From Candidatus Heimdallarchaeota archaeon (GTDB taxonomy: Archaea > Asgardarchaeota > Heimdallarchaeia > Heimdallarchaeales > Heimdallarchaeaceae): 64,000 nt of DNA. Under the pieces are notes generated by a model that did not search any database, was not told the origin of the DNA, and worked only from the letters and a program-made list of their open reading frames with translations. Of the stretch, positions 27,254-37,455 are shown in pieces (position 1 is the first letter of the stretch; each line of letters opens with the position of its first letter). The position numbers and the translations under genes were made by a program. Location: positions 22,313 to 86,312 of the forward strand of contig DXJF01000097.1 of assembly GCA_019057375.1 (NCBI GenBank), in the 5' to 3' direction.

Positions 27254-27295
27254 TGGTGCGGGGAGGGAGATTCGAACTCCCGAACCACTAAGGAA
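27254..27295 (-). pseudogene. tRNA-Leu 3' fragment, copy 1 (part left of the inserted element)
   Basis: Plus strand TGGTGCGGGGAGGGAGATTCGAACTCCCGAACCACTAAGGAA is nearly identical to 31861-31902. Confidence 0.92.
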
Positions 27296-27343
27296 AGGTG
27301 TTTTTTTATCGTGTTTAAATATCAAATTACAGATATAAAAGTG

Positions 27344-29269
27344 ATGAATTCTGTGCTTGTAAAAGATCTCGAAGAAGAAAAGGAAGTTCAAAAAACCTAT
27401 TCCTTAGTTCTTAGATTTCAAAATCTAGCACAAAGAAAAGAAGCTAACCATCGAGTCAGCGATTTAGAAGATAAACAATCACTATTACTATATGATACTT
27501 CTACTCAAAAAATTGCAAGAGATTTAGCTCGCGAAAATCCAAATGTTTCATTTCCTATTTCTAAAATCCAAAAATCTTCGAGGAGCAGTTCAAATATCTC
27601 TTTCAGTGCTTATAATTGGTTGTTTGCAGCATCAAAAGTGTCTGTTGATAAGGAAAAGAAAGTAGCTGATTTATTCCAGTTTCTGTTACAAAATCCACAG
27701 CAAGCAATTGAATGGGTGATTCTTGGACGTTCTCCCTATACTGAAATTTCTCTTTCGAAGAAATGGAGAGTAGATTATGTATATGTTATAAATCTCTTGA
27801 CAAGTACTAGACGAAAAACTAACACTTATTGGAAAAAGAATTTTACTATGAGCTTTAAAGAAAAGCAACTAGAGTTCAATTCAAAGCTTCCAAAGACAAC
27901 ACAATTTGAAGTTGAACAAGCAATACAAGACTGCTATGAAGTAAAGGTAGAAGAGTATGCAAAATTGAAGAAAACTACTGAAAAACAATATACTTTTCTT
28001 GATAAATTAGCTTTGGTAGTGAAACATAAGTATGTTATAGCTCCATATGTAACTTCTTGGATTAATCTTTCTCAAAAAGCTCGGTGGAAAAGCTTAAAGC
28101 AACTGAGTAAACAACTTGCTGAAACGATTGGTCAAATCAATGAAAAACTCCATTCTACAATAAGATTGATAGTAGTTTTTGCACTCTTCTCAAAACTGTG
28201 GGGGACTGTATCTAAATTAATTGATTCAACTAATCCAGAAGAAGTTGTAAGTTCTCCGTTTGAAAGAAAAAAAGCGAATTTACCAATTAAAATGTTAATG
28301 AAACATGAATATGACATAATTCGACCTGGTAACTCTCAAAAGATGACACAACTTGCTAAAGAACAAGGATGCTTTGAACTTGGATTTCCATGTAAAGGAA
28401 AAAAAAGAATAACAGGTAATCTTCTGTTTACAGAAAAAATTATCGAATATCTGAAAAATGGTGCTAGTGTAAGAATCTTACAAATTAAAAGTGGAAAAGC
28501 TCCTAACTACAAACCCAAGATTTCAGTTGTTCTTCATGGTACTCCTAGCATGTTTGTGAGCACCAAACTAGCACAAAAATATGCTAACAGTATGAATCTC
28601 ACTGCTGCTAATATCTTAGGGCTAGATGTCAATAGAGTAGGAAAACACATGTTGTCGTTCTCTAATGAAGTTCCATTGGATTCTAGATTGAGATCTTTAT
28701 CAAACCATTACCTCTCCTTAACAAGAAAAGAAATTCCAAGATTGAGTAACTCACTAAAAACTAAAGGTAAGCAAAAAGATAGTTATGGTTATATTAAAAC
28801 AAAGGGTGAGCTAAATAGGATATATAACAAAAGAACTAATATAATTAAGGAAATTAAGAGAATAATACCACATTACATTGCGGGAGTTATTATCAAGAGT
28901 AAGTGTAAATTTTTTTGTATAGAAGAGTTTCGTAAGAATCCAAGAGGGAAAAGAGGTGCATTAGCAAAAGCAATATACAACATGCCTTACGAAGACAATA
29001 TTTTTGAAAAAGCAGTCCAGATTGCGACTCACATTCTTAGTTATAAAGTGAAACTTGTATATGTAAGTGCTCGTAACACAAGTAAATATCATTATAGTTG
29101 TAGAGGTGTGATTCAAAGAGATCTTAAAAATTATGATTATGCTCTCTGTAAAAAATGTGGTGAACGAGTAAATACACATATTAATGCTGCTAAAAACATT
29201 GCGAAGAAAGGAGAAACAATAATAAAGCAAATCAAGCTTCCCCTAGACGCCGCTAAGGGGACGGGGTAA
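27344..29269 (+). CDS. tnpB: Large TnpB/Cas12-like RuvC + Zn-ribbon protein (~641 aa from ATG 27344; track start 27311)
   Basis: RuvC-I ILGLDVN, RuvC-II FCIEE, SARNTSK, HxxC...CxxC ribbon, NTHINAAKNI terminal motif. Confidence 0.85.
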   Translation: MNSVLVKDLEEEKEVQKTYSLVLRFQNLAQRKEANHRVSDLEDKQSLLLYDTSTQKIARDLARENPNVSFPISKIQKSSRSSSNISFSAYNWLFAASKVSVDKEKKVADLFQFLLQNPQQAIEWVILGRSPYTEISLSKKWRVDYVYVINLLTSTRRKTNTYWKKNFTMSFKEKQLEFNSKLPKTTQFEVEQAIQDCYEVKVEEYAKLKKTTEKQYTFLDKLALVVKHKYVIAPYVTSWINLSQKARWKSLKQLSKQLAETIGQINEKLHSTIRLIVVFALFSKLWGTVSKLIDSTNPEEVVSSPFERKKANLPIKMLMKHEYDIIRPGNSQKMTQLAKEQGCFELGFPCKGKKRITGNLLFTEKIIEYLKNGASVRILQIKSGKAPNYKPKISVVLHGTPSMFVSTKLAQKYANSMNLTAANILGLDVNRVGKHMLSFSNEVPLDSRLRSLSNHYLSLTRKEIPRLSNSLKTKGKQKDSYGYIKTKGELNRIYNKRTNIIKEIKRIIPHYIAGVIIKSKCKFFCIEEFRKNPRGKRGALAKAIYNMPYEDNIFEKAVQIATHILSYKVKLVYVSARNTSKYHYSCRGVIQRDLKNYDYALCKKCGERVNTHINAAKNIAKKGETIIKQIKLPLDAAKGTG

Positions 29270-29334
29270 ATAAACCCCTCAAGTAAACCTAAAGTTTCTA
29301 CGAGAACCTAGTAAACTTCATTACGTGCGTGGAA
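29232..29334 (+). ncRNA. Putative omega-RNA scaffold / right end of the element
   Basis: Hairpins CCCCT(29240-44)/AGGGG(29256-60), GGGGT(29263-67)/ACCCC(29274-78) and GTTTCT/AGAAC, overlapping the tnpB 3' end; 5' boundary approximate. Confidence 0.55.
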
Positions 29335-29347
29335 CGGATGACTTATT
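29335..29347 (-). pseudogene. Remainder of tRNA-Leu fragment copy 1 (anticodon 3' strand + intron 3' end)
   Basis: CGGATGACTTATT vs CGGATGGCTCATC in the intact gene (10/13). Confidence 0.65.
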
Positions 29348-29398
29348 ATTTTAATAAATAATAGTTAGCTTAGATAAGAAAAATAGATTTGAAAAAAT

Positions 29399-29502
29399 TG
29401 GTGCGGAGAGGGAGATTCGAACTCCCGAACTACAAAGGAACGGATTTCTTATCTATTCTCTAACCCTTATCTTAGGTTTAAAACTAAGATCTTAAGTCCA
29501 CC
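29399..29502 (-). pseudogene. tRNA-Leu(TAA) partial copy 2 (anticodon arm + full intron + 3' exon + CCA; lacks 5' acceptor strand and D-arm); att-like repeat
   Basis: Collinear with 31861-31963 including TCTTAAGTCC; homology stops at about tRNA position 27. Confidence 0.92.
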
Positions 29503-29548
29503 TTGAAACATAAAAGTATTAAAGGTTTAAAAGACAAAATAGGATTAA

Positions 29549-30427
29549 ATGTCTAGTAAAAATTGGGACACTGTAATAGAGTTACTAGAAACAATCACGC
29601 CCTCATATTACTTAGAAAAGGAGCTTAAAGCTACATTCAAATCTAATCTCCAATATAGAATAGGAAAATACTCTGAGAATTGTCGATATTTCTTTCAGGA
29701 AGGTTTCGAAAAAAAATATTCAAATATTATTCCATCAGCAATAATTGTACCAAGGAAGTCAGGAACTAATATAAGCAAAATCGCAAATGAAGCTGTTATA
29801 TATTTTAAACAAAGCTTGGAATTGTTTAAAACATTGGATAACGTTGAAGAAAATGTGAGTCCATTATTGGAATATTATGGATTATTACAATGTGTTAAGG
29901 GAGTAGTAATTTTAGAATTAGATGTGAAAAGTGACAAGATATTTAGTAAGCATGGTTTAACTCAAGAAACAAGATTTCATTCAAAAATAGATGAACCAAA
30001 ATCAACAAAAAAATATAAACTAAAAATGATTAAGAGAATTAAGCCATCAAAATATATCAACGCTAAAATTATGCCTTATGGTGTTTTAACATCTTTAATC
30101 ATTCGTTTCACAGATCATTATGATGAACTTTATTCTGACAGAGACATATACAAAATAAGTAAGCATTCTATGGATAAATACGTAACAGGATACTATAGAC
30201 CTTCATTAGAAGAAATAACAACCAATCATCATGTAGATCCAATAATTGCTTTCATAGGTTCTTGGATGTTATCAACATTGGTAAGATATAAAGCAAAAAT
30301 GTGGCAAGAAATATGTTTGGGAGAAAAAGATGACATAATAAATAATATTAGAAAATTTAGGAGGGAAAAAATACCTAAAGCAGTAGAAACTATGCTAATG
30401 GATTATGTAAGAAAGAGCTCTTGGTAA
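29549..30427 (+). CDS. YaaC-like family protein
   Basis: YFKQS.E.F...PLLEYYG.L...HGL and MLSTLVRY....W.....GE motifs resemble YaaC. Confidence 0.6.
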   Translation: MSSKNWDTVIELLETITPSYYLEKELKATFKSNLQYRIGKYSENCRYFFQEGFEKKYSNIIPSAIIVPRKSGTNISKIANEAVIYFKQSLELFKTLDNVEENVSPLLEYYGLLQCVKGVVILELDVKSDKIFSKHGLTQETRFHSKIDEPKSTKKYKLKMIKRIKPSKYINAKIMPYGVLTSLIIRFTDHYDELYSDRDIYKISKHSMDKYVTGYYRPSLEEITTNHHVDPIIAFIGSWMLSTLVRYKAKMWQEICLGEKDDIINNIRKFRREKIPKAVETMLMDYVRKSSW

Positions 30428-30509
30428 CAGCTTAAAGAGTATTCATAAGTACTACAAAAGCTTAAAAAATAATGAATGAAAAAGGAAGGAGAGAAAGGAG
30501 GGGAGACAA

Positions 30510-31853
30510 GTGCAAGAGGATAATAGCGAAAATTTAGCTGAGCCAATAGGAATTAAAGAATTAGGAAAGAGAATAATTCTTCTCCCTTATCACATTATAA
30601 GGCTCATAGTAAATAATGTTTTACTATTTATTTTAGGAAGTATAGAAAATGGAGTAATAATTGTAAGAGCAAAAAAAAGTATCAAGATTGAAGAAGGAAT
30701 AAAAAAACTCATACAGGAAAACGAATGTATTCTAAGAAAAAGTATCTACTTAAAGAAAAACGATAGTATAGACGAGATTAAACCAGAAGAGGAAGAAGAG
30801 CAAGAAGTAAAACGAATAAATGTTTTGAATAGAATAATGGCTATAGTAGTAATTTCAATAGTTTGGTCGTTTCAAATTGTGTTGAGAGTCATAGTTTGGA
30901 TATTTATCTTGATTAATTGTTTAACCATTAGAAAGAAAGTAGGTTTAAAGGAGTGGGAAGAGAATAATTTGGGATATTACAGAGAAACCATAAAATATCT
31001 TACAGGTATTAGTGAAGAAATACCTTTTTGGAAAGAATTAGGTGGTTGGGGCGAAGGTTTATTATTTATATTAGTATTTGATTTGGTTGTTATTAGGAAT
31101 GGATTCTTAAGATTGTGTAGGATAATTCTTGGAGATACTTACAGTTATTATTTGATTATTTCGTTAGTATATATCATAATTTTCGTAATTCTTATACCAA
31201 AATATCTGAAGTTTCCAAGTAAAAGTGGGGAAAGGAAAACTAAGCAAATAGTAAGAAGAATAGGAGTAAAAAAACCAAAAAGTATAGCAAGGACTCTCTT
31301 AATTGTGATTCTACTATTAGCAATTAAATTAGGAATTATTTATGGAATATCCTTGCTAATAGATTATAATGTAGAAAATTTTATTTTCCCAGTAAATACA
31401 GGTTATATAATTGCAGTAAGTATGAGTGCAGGTATTGCTGAAGAAATAATATACAGGGGATATGTAATAGAAGTAACAAAAAGAAAATATGGAACTTTAG
31501 TAACTATGATAATTTCAGGGTGTCTTTTTGGACTTGCACATTTTGCGCTTAATCCATCCATTTATAGTTTTGTTCAGATGTTGTTCGTAACCTTTATAGG
31601 AATAACATATGCGTATTTCAGAATTCTATCAGATTCATTGATAGGACCAATAGTCATGCACACAATATATGACATAATTGTACTATCAGTAGTATATACA
31701 ACAGAAAAAATACCTGATTATGTCGTGTATTTGATAGCAATTACATTGAGTATTATAATAACAATAATTTCAATTAATTTGCTGAAACTAATATACAAAG
31801 ACAAAGAACTATTGATATTTAAGAAAAGAGGGAAAGAACAGAAGGAAGGATAA
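30510..31853 (+). CDS. CPBP (Abi/CAAX-type) intramembrane glutamic endopeptidase with long N-terminal extension
   Basis: EEIIYRG, FGLAH and H-x-x-x-D (MHTIYD) motifs; multiple TM helices. Confidence 0.9.
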   Translation: MQEDNSENLAEPIGIKELGKRIILLPYHIIRLIVNNVLLFILGSIENGVIIVRAKKSIKIEEGIKKLIQENECILRKSIYLKKNDSIDEIKPEEEEEQEVKRINVLNRIMAIVVISIVWSFQIVLRVIVWIFILINCLTIRKKVGLKEWEENNLGYYRETIKYLTGISEEIPFWKELGGWGEGLLFILVFDLVVIRNGFLRLCRIILGDTYSYYLIISLVYIIIFVILIPKYLKFPSKSGERKTKQIVRRIGVKKPKSIARTLLIVILLLAIKLGIIYGISLLIDYNVENFIFPVNTGYIIAVSMSAGIAEEIIYRGYVIEVTKRKYGTLVTMIISGCLFGLAHFALNPSIYSFVQMLFVTFIGITYAYFRILSDSLIGPIVMHTIYDIIVLSVVYTTEKIPDYVVYLIAITLSIIITIISINLLKLIYKDKELLIFKKRGKEQKEG

Positions 31854-31860
31854 AGGAAAA

Positions 31861-31989
31861 TGGTGCGGGGAGGGAGATTCGAACTCCCGAACTACTAAAG
31901 AACGGATGGCTCATCTGACTTCTAACCCTTATCTTAGGCATAAACCAAGATCTTAAGTCCGCCGCCGTTGGCCACTTGGCTATCCCCGC
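31861..31989 (-). tRNA. tRNA-Leu(TAA) with 44-nt intron at 37/38 (31908-31951), CCA encoded
   Basis: GCGGGGA/TCCCCGC acceptor, GCGGA-CTTAAG[intron]A-TCCGT, GTTCGAAT T-loop; BHB central helix CTTA/TGAG. Confidence 0.96.
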
Positions 31990-37345: not shown

Positions 37346-37455
37346 TGGTGGGGCATAGCAGATTTGAACTGCCGACCCCCCGGTTTTTGAGTTAAATGCT
37401 TAACAAACAAATAACATATCAGCCGAGTGCTCTAACCAAGCTGAGCTAATGCCCC
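37346..37455 (-). tRNA. tRNA-Ile(GAT) with 32-nt intron at 37/38 (37385-37416), CCA encoded
   Basis: GGGGCAT/ATGCCCC acceptor, CTCGG-CTGATA[intron]A-CCGGG, GTTCAAAT. Confidence 0.95.

Follow-up and report, generated by a model that had tools for sequence, protein, structure and literature searches.

Why should a gene of the TnpB type lie inside the remains of a transfer RNA gene, and is the guide RNA that would go with it aimed at tRNA genes? The question is raised by an element in a 64,000-nucleotide stretch of DNA (here called the window) from a Candidatus Heimdallarchaeota archaeon, contig DXJF01000097.1. In our labels the window, which has a G+C content of 34%, lies on contig C47 of the source genome, G000, a 3.47-Mb assembly of 159 contigs that is 89% complete. 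Our survey of the genus covered 25 genomes (G labels) and 73 loci of the element family that have a right end; individual loci have L labels. The element, a tnpA-less TnpB element of 2,039 bp at positions 27296–29334 of the plus strand, sits precisely inside the 3′ part of a former resident tRNA-Leu(UAA) gene. The best reading of the locus, to which we give a probability of about 55%, is tRNA-directed homing with rescue by the TnpB element.

The insertion can be read from its two flanks. To the left, positions 27255–27295 (minus strand) hold the 41-nt 3′ part of a tRNA-Leu (CCA end to variable region, ..CCACTAAGGAA), which is the native left flank, severed by the element; in sister species, this site is occupied by a whole tRNA-Leu. 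To the right, positions 29331–29352 (plus strand) hold the guide block GGAACGGATGACTTATTATTTT, which is antisense to the 3′ strand of the tRNA-Leu anticodon stem and to the 3′ end of the intron. The left flank ..CCACTAAGGAA and the right flank CGGATGACTTAT are collinear with tRNA-Leu. Genus genomes queried with the bactofilin-like gene to the left of the element gave empty alleles in at least 16 species, in each of which that gene is followed by the same spacer, an uninterrupted tRNA-Leu and then a synthetase gene. The tRNA-Leu of G010, GAACCACTAAGGAACGGATGACTTATCTAACCC, equals the left flank of the window joined to its right flank with a single GGAA, and the insertion was therefore precise and 2,039 bp long. 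The tetranucleotide is repeated at 27292–27295 and 29331–29334, as an earlier reading of the sequence alone (below, the sequence-only reading) had noted, and the ends of the element are ambiguous within it; the further claim of that reading, that excision would restore tRNA-Leu, is borne out by the real empty alleles. From a comparison with other family members, ..GTGCGT at 29330 is the most probable right end. We place it there because the right end of the family, ..ACGTGCG(T), is conserved in 73 loci and because the orthologs L012, L014 and L134 end in GTGCG(C) followed by [G/A]GAACGGAT. In all, the window contains three stretches derived from tRNA-Leu, namely the functional gene, a second fragment (copy 2) and the interrupted copy 1 (41 nt to the left and about 22 nt to the right of the element); a 20-mer of the T-arm occurs three times in the window, where zero occurrences are expected by chance.

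The TnpB proteins of transposons are thought to use as a guide any flank that lies at the landing site. Here, the 20 nt past the scaffold (GGAACGGATGACTTATTATT) are conserved and inherited as a block in every orthologous element. Such orthologs occur in G003, G017, G022 and one metagenome contig, with protein identities of 60–62%. In those that are readable, GTGCG(T/C) is followed by [G/A]GAACGGAT.., a stretch of 18–22 nt collinear with tRNA-Leu, past which come a non-conserved spacer of 20–90 nt and then a copy of tRNA-Leu or the complete gene. A complete tRNA-Leu always lies downstream of the guide, in G000 beyond copy 2 and an islet. The sequence-only reading had taken the right flank as the guide, and this part of its proposal stands, in that the block is tRNA-Leu-derived and conserved; its start has to be moved. 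Because the tRNA-collinear sequence begins right after GTGCG(T/C), the guide most likely starts at GGAA and not at CGGAT.

The same layout is found a second time beside tRNA-Cys, in a subfamily present in 12 of the 25 genomes whose block, A[CG]GCATGGCCGCTTTGCTAA, matches the D-arm, and in a third case the block matches the anticodon arm of an intron-bearing tRNA-Pro. The Cys and Pro blocks are 18–21 nt long, lie beyond the 3′ end of a complete gene and have no companion fragment at the left. About 22 of the 73 loci, in seven groups (Leu, Cys, Pro, two Val, Ser and Asn), are linked to tRNA genes, and similar repeats flank the copies at tRNA-Val(CAC), tRNA-Ser and tRNA-Asn. The 40 tRNA genes of G000 take up roughly 0.1% of its sequence, so that the linkage seen in the family is far above chance. 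Most main-clade copies are at non-tRNA sites. Our literature searches turned up no TnpB element described as having a fixed guide that matches a tRNA; a 2026 review of obligate mobile element-guided activity (OMEGA) systems gives tRNA-specific insertion only for the eukaryotic Dada transposons and phage SegB, and not for TnpB (PMC13565253). As a separate observation, the tRNA-Cys(GCA) genes of 19 genomes (L111–L129) are unusually variable in the D-loop and anticodon stem (GGCCGC, AACGGC, ATCTTC, GGCCAGG), and the variable D-loop is the region that the guide of the Cys subfamily matches.

How sharply the block is delimited was compared in 4 Leu loci and 11 Cys loci. Mean pairwise identity over the last 20 nt of the right end is 0.92 in the Cys subfamily and 0.78 in the Leu subfamily. 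Over flank nucleotides 1–20, which are the guide, it is 0.79 (0.77 in 7 non-syntenic loci) and 0.74, respectively, and over nucleotides 21–60 it lies at background level (0.33–0.35 and 0.26–0.38). A neutral relic would decay together with its surroundings, and the sharp drop after exactly 20 nt therefore marks the block as a selected part of the unit. Among tRNA genes as such, there is no conservation of the half of the Leu guide that derives from the intron.

These data bear on a substantial rival, if a doubtful one, namely that the window holds an ordinary non-autonomous IS607-type insertion with no tRNA-directed function. On this account, an integrase duplicated the 3′ part of tRNA-Leu, leaving a remnant of a right attachment site (attR), and the TnpB element landed there through a trans-acting TnpA; the locus was then inherited vertically and lost elsewhere through recombination between repeats, and the linkage to tRNA genes reflects hot spots together with the survival of harmless insertions. 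Several findings fit. The tRNA-Leu gene is a hot spot for islets, as copy 2 and the YaaC/CAAX islet of the window and a 2-kb islet of G024, which has the same 41-nt repeat and no TnpB, both indicate. The Leu-subfamily loci are syntenic, with the bactofilin-like gene on the left and the synthetase on the right; the identity of their TnpB proteins, 60–62%, is near that of the flanking gene, 56–58%; and the non-tRNA sites of most main-clade copies are what plain insertion would give. The fall in conservation after exactly 20 nt, to a spacer at background, is however seen in two separate subfamilies, and a plain insertion does not lead one to expect blocks of 18–21 nt past the 3′ end of complete tRNA-Cys and tRNA-Pro genes that have no fragment on the left. 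In addition, the integrated element would have had to shrink to 20–90 nt in every lineage, the closest relatives of G000 are without the element, and the guide of G022 is unlike its native resident allele. The history of the Leu subfamily may have been vertical or horizontal: the loci are syntenic, the closest relatives are without the element, and recombination between repeats could erase it.

The G022 locus is part of a broader comparison between guides and tRNA alleles. The predicted guide of the window element matches tRNA-Leu alleles of sister species with 0–2 mismatches in the first 16 nt, agreeing with the G010 allele over all of these (16/16) and differing from the allele of G009, G013 and G018 at 2 of 20 positions. 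Against the resident functional gene, whose allele is also that of G024 and G011, there are 6 mismatches in 20, and against copy 2 there are 5 in 20. With tRNA-Leu(CAA), 13 of the first 16 nt match, the first 10 nt being common to both. In G000 no perfect target of the guide was found. The resident tRNA of G022 has practically the sequence of the native allele at the empty site in G008, and the G022 guide resembles the G002 allele; as the guide is unlike the native resident allele, it must have arrived with the element. In the Cys subfamily, too, most guides that we compared by eye are nearer to the alleles of other species than to the neighboring tRNA. Two counts of the sequence-only reading, 10 matches over the first 12 nt in both copy 2 and the functional gene and the contrast of AGGAA in the former with AAGAA in the latter, are correct, as are all of its coordinates. 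Its proposal that the element is aimed at tRNA-derived attachment sites and spares the gene agrees with the tRNA linkage and with the mismatches to the resident gene, but the block is not merely an att-like remnant, as the guide travels with the element.

A predicted cognate structured RNA overlaps the 3′ end of the gene and stops at the element boundary. The putative omega-RNA scaffold (29232–29330, plus strand) comprises hairpin 1 (29240–29260, CCCCT..AGGGG), hairpin 2 (29263–29278, GGGG..CCCC), the sequence CAAG, a third stem and a conserved tail ..CTTCATTACGTGCGT, and in the window element it ends ..ACGTGCGT at 29330. In all paralogs, the 3′ RNA starts inside the end of the ORF (open reading frame) and stops at ..TTCATAACGTGCG(T), beyond which the sequences diverge. 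The loop of hairpin 1 pairs with the last 7 bases of the scaffold, and covariation across the family gives this predicted pseudoknot strong support. Of 71 distinct RNAs, 61 have a pairing of 7–9 bp, with compensatory changes of many types, and the mean length is 7.2 bp versus 3.8 bp for shuffled tails; in a 36-sequence alignment, 6 of the 7 pairs have changes on both sides, and 91.7% of cells pair, versus 29–63% for slid partners. The 4-bp pseudoknot put forward in the sequence-only reading (loop ACGC at 29247–29250 with terminal GCGT at 29327–29330, both confirmed) is homologous to that of the family but is a weak local version of it, and the window RNA folded alone is no better than shuffles (z = −1.31). 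No Rfam family matches the omega-RNA; the sole sub-threshold match, RF04351, falls on the tRNA fragment and is spurious.

The protein that would work with this RNA is encoded at 27344–29269 on the plus strand and has 641 amino acids from the ATG or 652 from a GTG at 27311. An archaeal TATA-like box predicted from its motif, TTTAAATA at 27314–27321 (plus strand), lies 22 nt upstream of the ATG and is the conserved left-end motif of the family. The protein passes the PF07282 (Cas12f1-like TNB) cut-off narrowly (27.6 bits versus 26.3) and scores 28.9 bits with NCBIfam NF040570, guided_TnpB, far below the curated cut-off of 100 bits; on profile scores, it is a distant, oversized relative of guided_TnpB. 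An AlphaFold (AF2) model built from 30 homologs (mean predicted local distance difference test score, pLDDT, of 84.4) retrieves Cas12f, TnpB, Fanzor2, Cas12k and other Cas12 proteins in Foldseek, with E down to 8e-9 and probability 1.0, and the family profile matches CnCas12f1 at E = 1.8e-7. The modeled protein thus has the TnpB/Cas12f fold, with a RuvC-like nuclease fold and a C-terminal zinc ribbon (TNB), and the original identification as TnpB is sound. The zinc finger has the form HxxC..CxxC. The RuvC-I Asp (GLDVNR) and the RuvC-II Glu (CIEEF) are intact, whereas motif III, NTHxNAA, has a His (NTHINAAKNI), so that the protein does not have the full D-E-D catalytic triad. A profile search aligned the family motif CkkCGqkVNtHaNAAkNIA to CKKCGYKVNADYNAARNIA of CnCas12f1, and the His therefore occupies the position of the catalytic RuvC-III Asp, that of NADYNAARNI in CnCas12f1. 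The same His is kept in every family locus where the motif was found, including copies with tnpA. Two further features hold throughout the family: the first pair of zinc ligands is HxxC, and a conserved [YWH]D stands just ahead of the second CxxC. A search of the window with the motif D.NAA..I gave no conventional TnpB with an Asp at this site.

Could the protein, then, be a domesticated, nuclease-dead, RNA-guided DNA binder of the TldR type that is guided to tRNA genes or incoming DNA and, for instance, represses the genes or blocks integration at tRNA attachment sites? We regard this as unlikely. The His that replaces the RuvC-III Asp family-wide, a fixed conserved guide such as TldR loci have, and a subfamily devoid of tnpA would all suit it, and the likeness to TldR is real: both are relatives of TnpB that have no cognate transposase, keep their guide conserved and have a changed RuvC residue (PMC10705468). 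Here, however, only one RuvC residue is replaced, and the same His is found in all members, including tnpA-bearing, multi-copy IS607-type members that behave as transposons; given its presence in apparently mobile members, the His does not signal domestication. The zinc finger and the remaining RuvC Asp and Glu are intact, and, as is expected of mobile DNA, a large number of copies have become pseudogenes or are located at contig ends. Guides mismatch the resident tRNA at 3–6 positions and have no evident resident target. The window guide, in contrast to those of TldR, matches no resident promoter or gene, a search for a target of the TldR type having found no perfect or near-perfect match in G000, and the family is archaeal with proteins of about 650 amino acids (PMC10705468 for TldR).

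The mobility of the family is that of IS607. By homology, it is an Asgard-specific IS607-type family with a serine-recombinase tnpA in its full-length members, and the window element is a tnpA-less derivative of such an element. Copies are present in 25 of 25 genus genomes, many of them at contig ends or with stops; G000 has 10 full-length paralogs (two with an in-frame stop) and one C-terminal fragment, at 42–46% identity, and homologs of the window TnpB in databases are labeled as Heimdall- or Thorarchaeota metagenome-assembled genomes. Main-clade copies have conserved coding sequence upstream of tnpB. In 15 loci, this is an ORF with a MerR helix-turn-helix and a resolvase domain, full-length or partial, the longest being complete ORFs, and upstream ORFs score 167–171 bits with NF033518 (IS607 family transposase) versus a cut-off of 110. 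The tnpA is missing from the window element and from the whole Leu subfamily. The element is not of the IS605 type with a target tetranucleotide: no Y1 HUH transposase (PF01797), the TnpA of IS200/IS605, was found in the 89%-complete G000, and the relatives have a serine recombinase in its place. As a source of tnpA, the four resolvase-domain ORFs of G000 were considered and rejected, as they are stand-alone, unrelated to the tnpA of the family and none lies beside tnpB.

IS607 elements are without inverted repeats and target duplication, and their ends are mostly GG (PMC13565253). The ends seen here are of this type: the right end is ..GTGCGTGG with AA beyond it, and GG(AA) stands at both junctions and once in empty alleles, which fits the dinucleotide core of an IS607 crossover. 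A crossover at GG between CTAA-GG-AACGG of the tRNA and GCGT-GG-AAAGG of the joined element ends yields exactly both observed junctions. A serine recombinase of the IS607 type, supplied in trans and acting at a GG core, is the probable agent of the first insertion and would leave GG(AA) on both sides. With known IS607/OMEGA elements, for which homing by TnpB is established background (Karvelis 2021; Meers 2023; reviewed in PMC13565253), the family shares the upstream serine-recombinase tnpA (MerR helix-turn-helix plus resolvase) of its full-length members, the RuvC/zinc-finger fold, GG ends, a guide just past the right end and a 3′ scaffold RNA with a pseudoknot that overlaps the gene end and stops at the right end. 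It differs in its proteins, which are of about 650 amino acids with a long helical N-terminal part and the RuvC-III Asp replaced by His, and in having several subfamilies that lack tnpA and combine a conserved 20-nt tRNA-matching guide with a complete, mismatched tRNA. Four main-clade copies deserve mention as derivatives with internal deletions: in L006, L015, L019 and L081, the final ~45 nt of tnpA are joined directly to the left-end motif of IS607 (..GTGAAAACTTA.CCAATCTTGCCA). In L019 (G018:C512), 71 nt past the right end recur exactly 534 nt onward, which may be a local duplication or an assembly artifact. In L010 (G000:C117:13445–15316), a similar stretch of ~50 nt (..GGCACCTCTGAAT..) lies on both sides, and no tRNA is recognized there.

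The repeats around the insert suggest one more explanation, in which TnpB travels as cargo in a small cassette, inserted at a 41-nt tRNA-Leu attachment site by an unlinked integrase of the tyrosine or serine type, TnpB and its RNA having no part in choosing the site. The different cassette of G024 has the same 41-nt repeat and the same end nucleotide, and the G022 insert, set against the empty G008 site, consists of element, guide, spacer and a repeated tRNA 3′ end, both as such a cassette would have it. Yet the guide continues the left fragment exactly in tRNA coordinates, a contiguity that an attachment boundary does not need; a Pfam scan of the neighborhood found no integrase in or near the tRNA-Leu locus; and the conserved 20-nt blocks of the Cys and Pro groups, where no repeat flanks the element, are left unexplained. 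We consider this account very improbable. Archaeal tRNA integrators of the SSV and pNOB8 types similarly have partial-tRNA direct repeats flanking the insert and element-borne sequence that restores the tRNA. They differ in that here there is no tyrosine integrase, tnpB is the only gene between the repeats, and the right repeat starts at the end of the scaffold.

How, then, might tRNA-directed homing with rescue proceed? In the scheme that we favor, the omega-RNA with its fixed guide would direct TnpB to susceptible tRNA-Leu alleles, either on other copies of the chromosome or on incoming DNA of related strains. Homologous recombination would then mend the break from the locus that carries the element, with homology arms provided by the conserved tRNA and the genes around it, and the whole unit (element, guide, spacer and guide-mismatched tRNA part) would be copied in. 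An essential, single-copy tRNA gene could in this way be targeted without killing the carrier, a form of "cleave and rescue." We infer that susceptible alleles are cut and that the unit spreads by recombination, with the mismatched tRNA part as the rescue.

A number of points weigh against this scheme. First, homing requires a cut, and the nuclease activity of a D-E-His protein may, judging from the substituted residue, be lost. Second, the guide, spacer and second tRNA 3′ part are an arrangement that an integrase-made attR remnant followed by a plain insertion would also produce. Third, part of the conservation of the 20-nt block could stem from the conserved tRNA from which it originates. 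Fourth, the Leu-subfamily loci may share a single founding event, which would make tRNA-Leu targeting a sample of one within the subfamily. Fifth, the pseudoknot of this subfamily is degenerate, with 3–4 bp (4 bp in the window, 29247–29250 with 29327–29330). Sixth, a comparison of 9 full-length copies at their left flanks, and of the tRNA targets on the 5′ side, yielded no consistent motif that could be a transposon-adjacent motif (TAM) or a crossover core, and the assignment of ..AGGAA in the left flank as the TAM, made from the sequence alone, is therefore not established. Finally, no tnpA of the family was found in G000, an assembly 89% complete.

A paralog at tRNA-Val(GAC) provides a view of how rescue could arise. 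A complete, intron-less tRNA-Val(GAC) gene is present in 12 species. In G000, the copy L003 (also L148; C65:38338–40760), which consists of a tnpA remnant and tnpB, has the native intron-less 5′ part of this gene to the right of its right end, and the G013 gene, with its promoter and downstream flank, is identical to the sequence directly past that end. On the left, a second, foreign 5′ part of the tRNA, diverged in sequence and with its promoter, contains a 31-nt intron; joined to the 3′ part, it makes a complete tRNA-Val gene, in which the intron interrupts the match to the guide after 12 nt. The tRNA promoter and the left-end motif of L003 are 114 nt apart, and these nucleotides are a remnant of the tnpA 3′ end, not a spacer. 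The intron-bearing allele exists only in G000 and its sister G024, and at the corresponding G024 locus (L149, C13) it is followed by native-type sequence with no TnpB, the state that recombination between the two repeats would be expected to produce. From this comparison, the intron of tRNA-Val(GAC) was likely gained through a mobile element and left behind in the sister species. A locus of the same layout is known from Caldiarchaeum subterraneum, where an insertion of ~1.9 kb, present in multiple copies, lies between a displaced 5′ fragment of tRNA-Thr and the restored tRNA, and where the element supplies the tRNA-Thr 5′ part including a new intron (Sugahara 2012, PMC3293823). That element differs in encoding an unrelated 271-amino acid ORF of unknown type, with no guide RNA or TnpB recognized (PMC3293823).

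Taken further, the homing scheme becomes a natural "cleave-and-rescue" gene drive, in which a fixed guide against an essential single-copy tRNA, coupled to a guide-resistant replacement, would spread through homologous recombination between related Asgard strains and seed introns and allele diversity at guide-matched positions. This broader proposal is possible, and we hold it tentatively; if it is true, some archaeal tRNA introns have a concrete selective origin. That two or three branches of one family have kept a 20-nt tRNA-matching guide over long evolutionary time, always beside a mismatched complete tRNA, is of interest in its own right. If the ribonucleoprotein cuts, there are several consequences. 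It would be a natural RNA-guided drive against essential genes with built-in rescue; the D-E-His RuvC site, kept across a mobile family of ~650-amino acid proteins, would be of interest for nuclease mechanism; the system would be intermediate between transposons that home freely and CRISPR-associated transposons with their fixed homing guides; and an old idea, in which the introns and the splitting of archaeal tRNA genes arise as by-products of mobile elements or as defenses against them, would become testable.

The comparison with CRISPR-associated transposons (CASTs) was already drawn in the sequence-only reading. Type V-K CASTs reportedly (the work is said to be that of Saito, in 2021) home to tRNA genes by means of a dedicated crRNA. 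The logic is alike, in that a Cas12-family protein uses a fixed, element-borne guide to a tRNA gene as a safe, conserved landing place, and the analogy extends to this logic alone. Here, Tns genes, a CRISPR array and Tn7-like ends are all absent (no repeats of the CRISPR-array type were seen in the stretch read), and the insertion is inside tRNA-derived sequence with partial duplication of the tRNA, not one made by Tn7 machinery downstream of an intact gene. Common descent of the two is supported only at the level of the TnpB/Cas12 superfamily.

The remaining features of the window lie mainly to the right of the element, whose neighbors are the bactofilin-like, YaaC-like and CAAX-protease genes. 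An A-rich spacer of 46 nt (29353–29398) separates the guide from copy 2, a tRNA-Leu fragment at 29399–29507 on the minus strand that lacks the 5′ half and comprises everything from the 3′ end, including the intron, up to the anticodon loop; it was defined by alignment with the functional gene, and BLAST aligns 101 nt with 86% identity. Copy 2 is separated from the functional tRNA by the integrase-less islet (29549–31853, plus strand), with a YaaC-like gene at 29549–30427 and a gene for a CAAX/Rce1-like protease at 30510–31853, both assigned by Pfam. The functional tRNA-Leu(UAA), with a 44-nt intron, occupies 31861–31989 on the minus strand (start at 31861 or 31864; 44.2 bits in Rfam, and ARAGORN run with introns) and adjoins a gene for a class II (Asp/Asn/Lys-type) aminoacyl-tRNA synthetase identified by Pfam. 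A second intron-bearing tRNA gene lies at 37349–37455 on the minus strand (52 bits in Rfam) and is missed by ARAGORN without the intron option. Outside the window, C47:14590–14701 is an intron-bearing tRNA-Leu with the anticodon CAA; BLAST finds the 41-nt left fragment of the element 100% identical to its 3′ part, and its 3′ 42 nt are identical to window positions 27254–27295. At the same tRNA-Leu site in G024 (L131, C152, reverse strand), the 2-kb islet without integrase or TnpB is bounded by the same 41-nt tRNA-Leu repeat and ends at the same nucleotide (..AAAGAA) as the left junction in the window. It encodes a 649-amino acid protein with a signal-like N-terminal and a membrane-anchor-like C-terminal hydrophobic segment.

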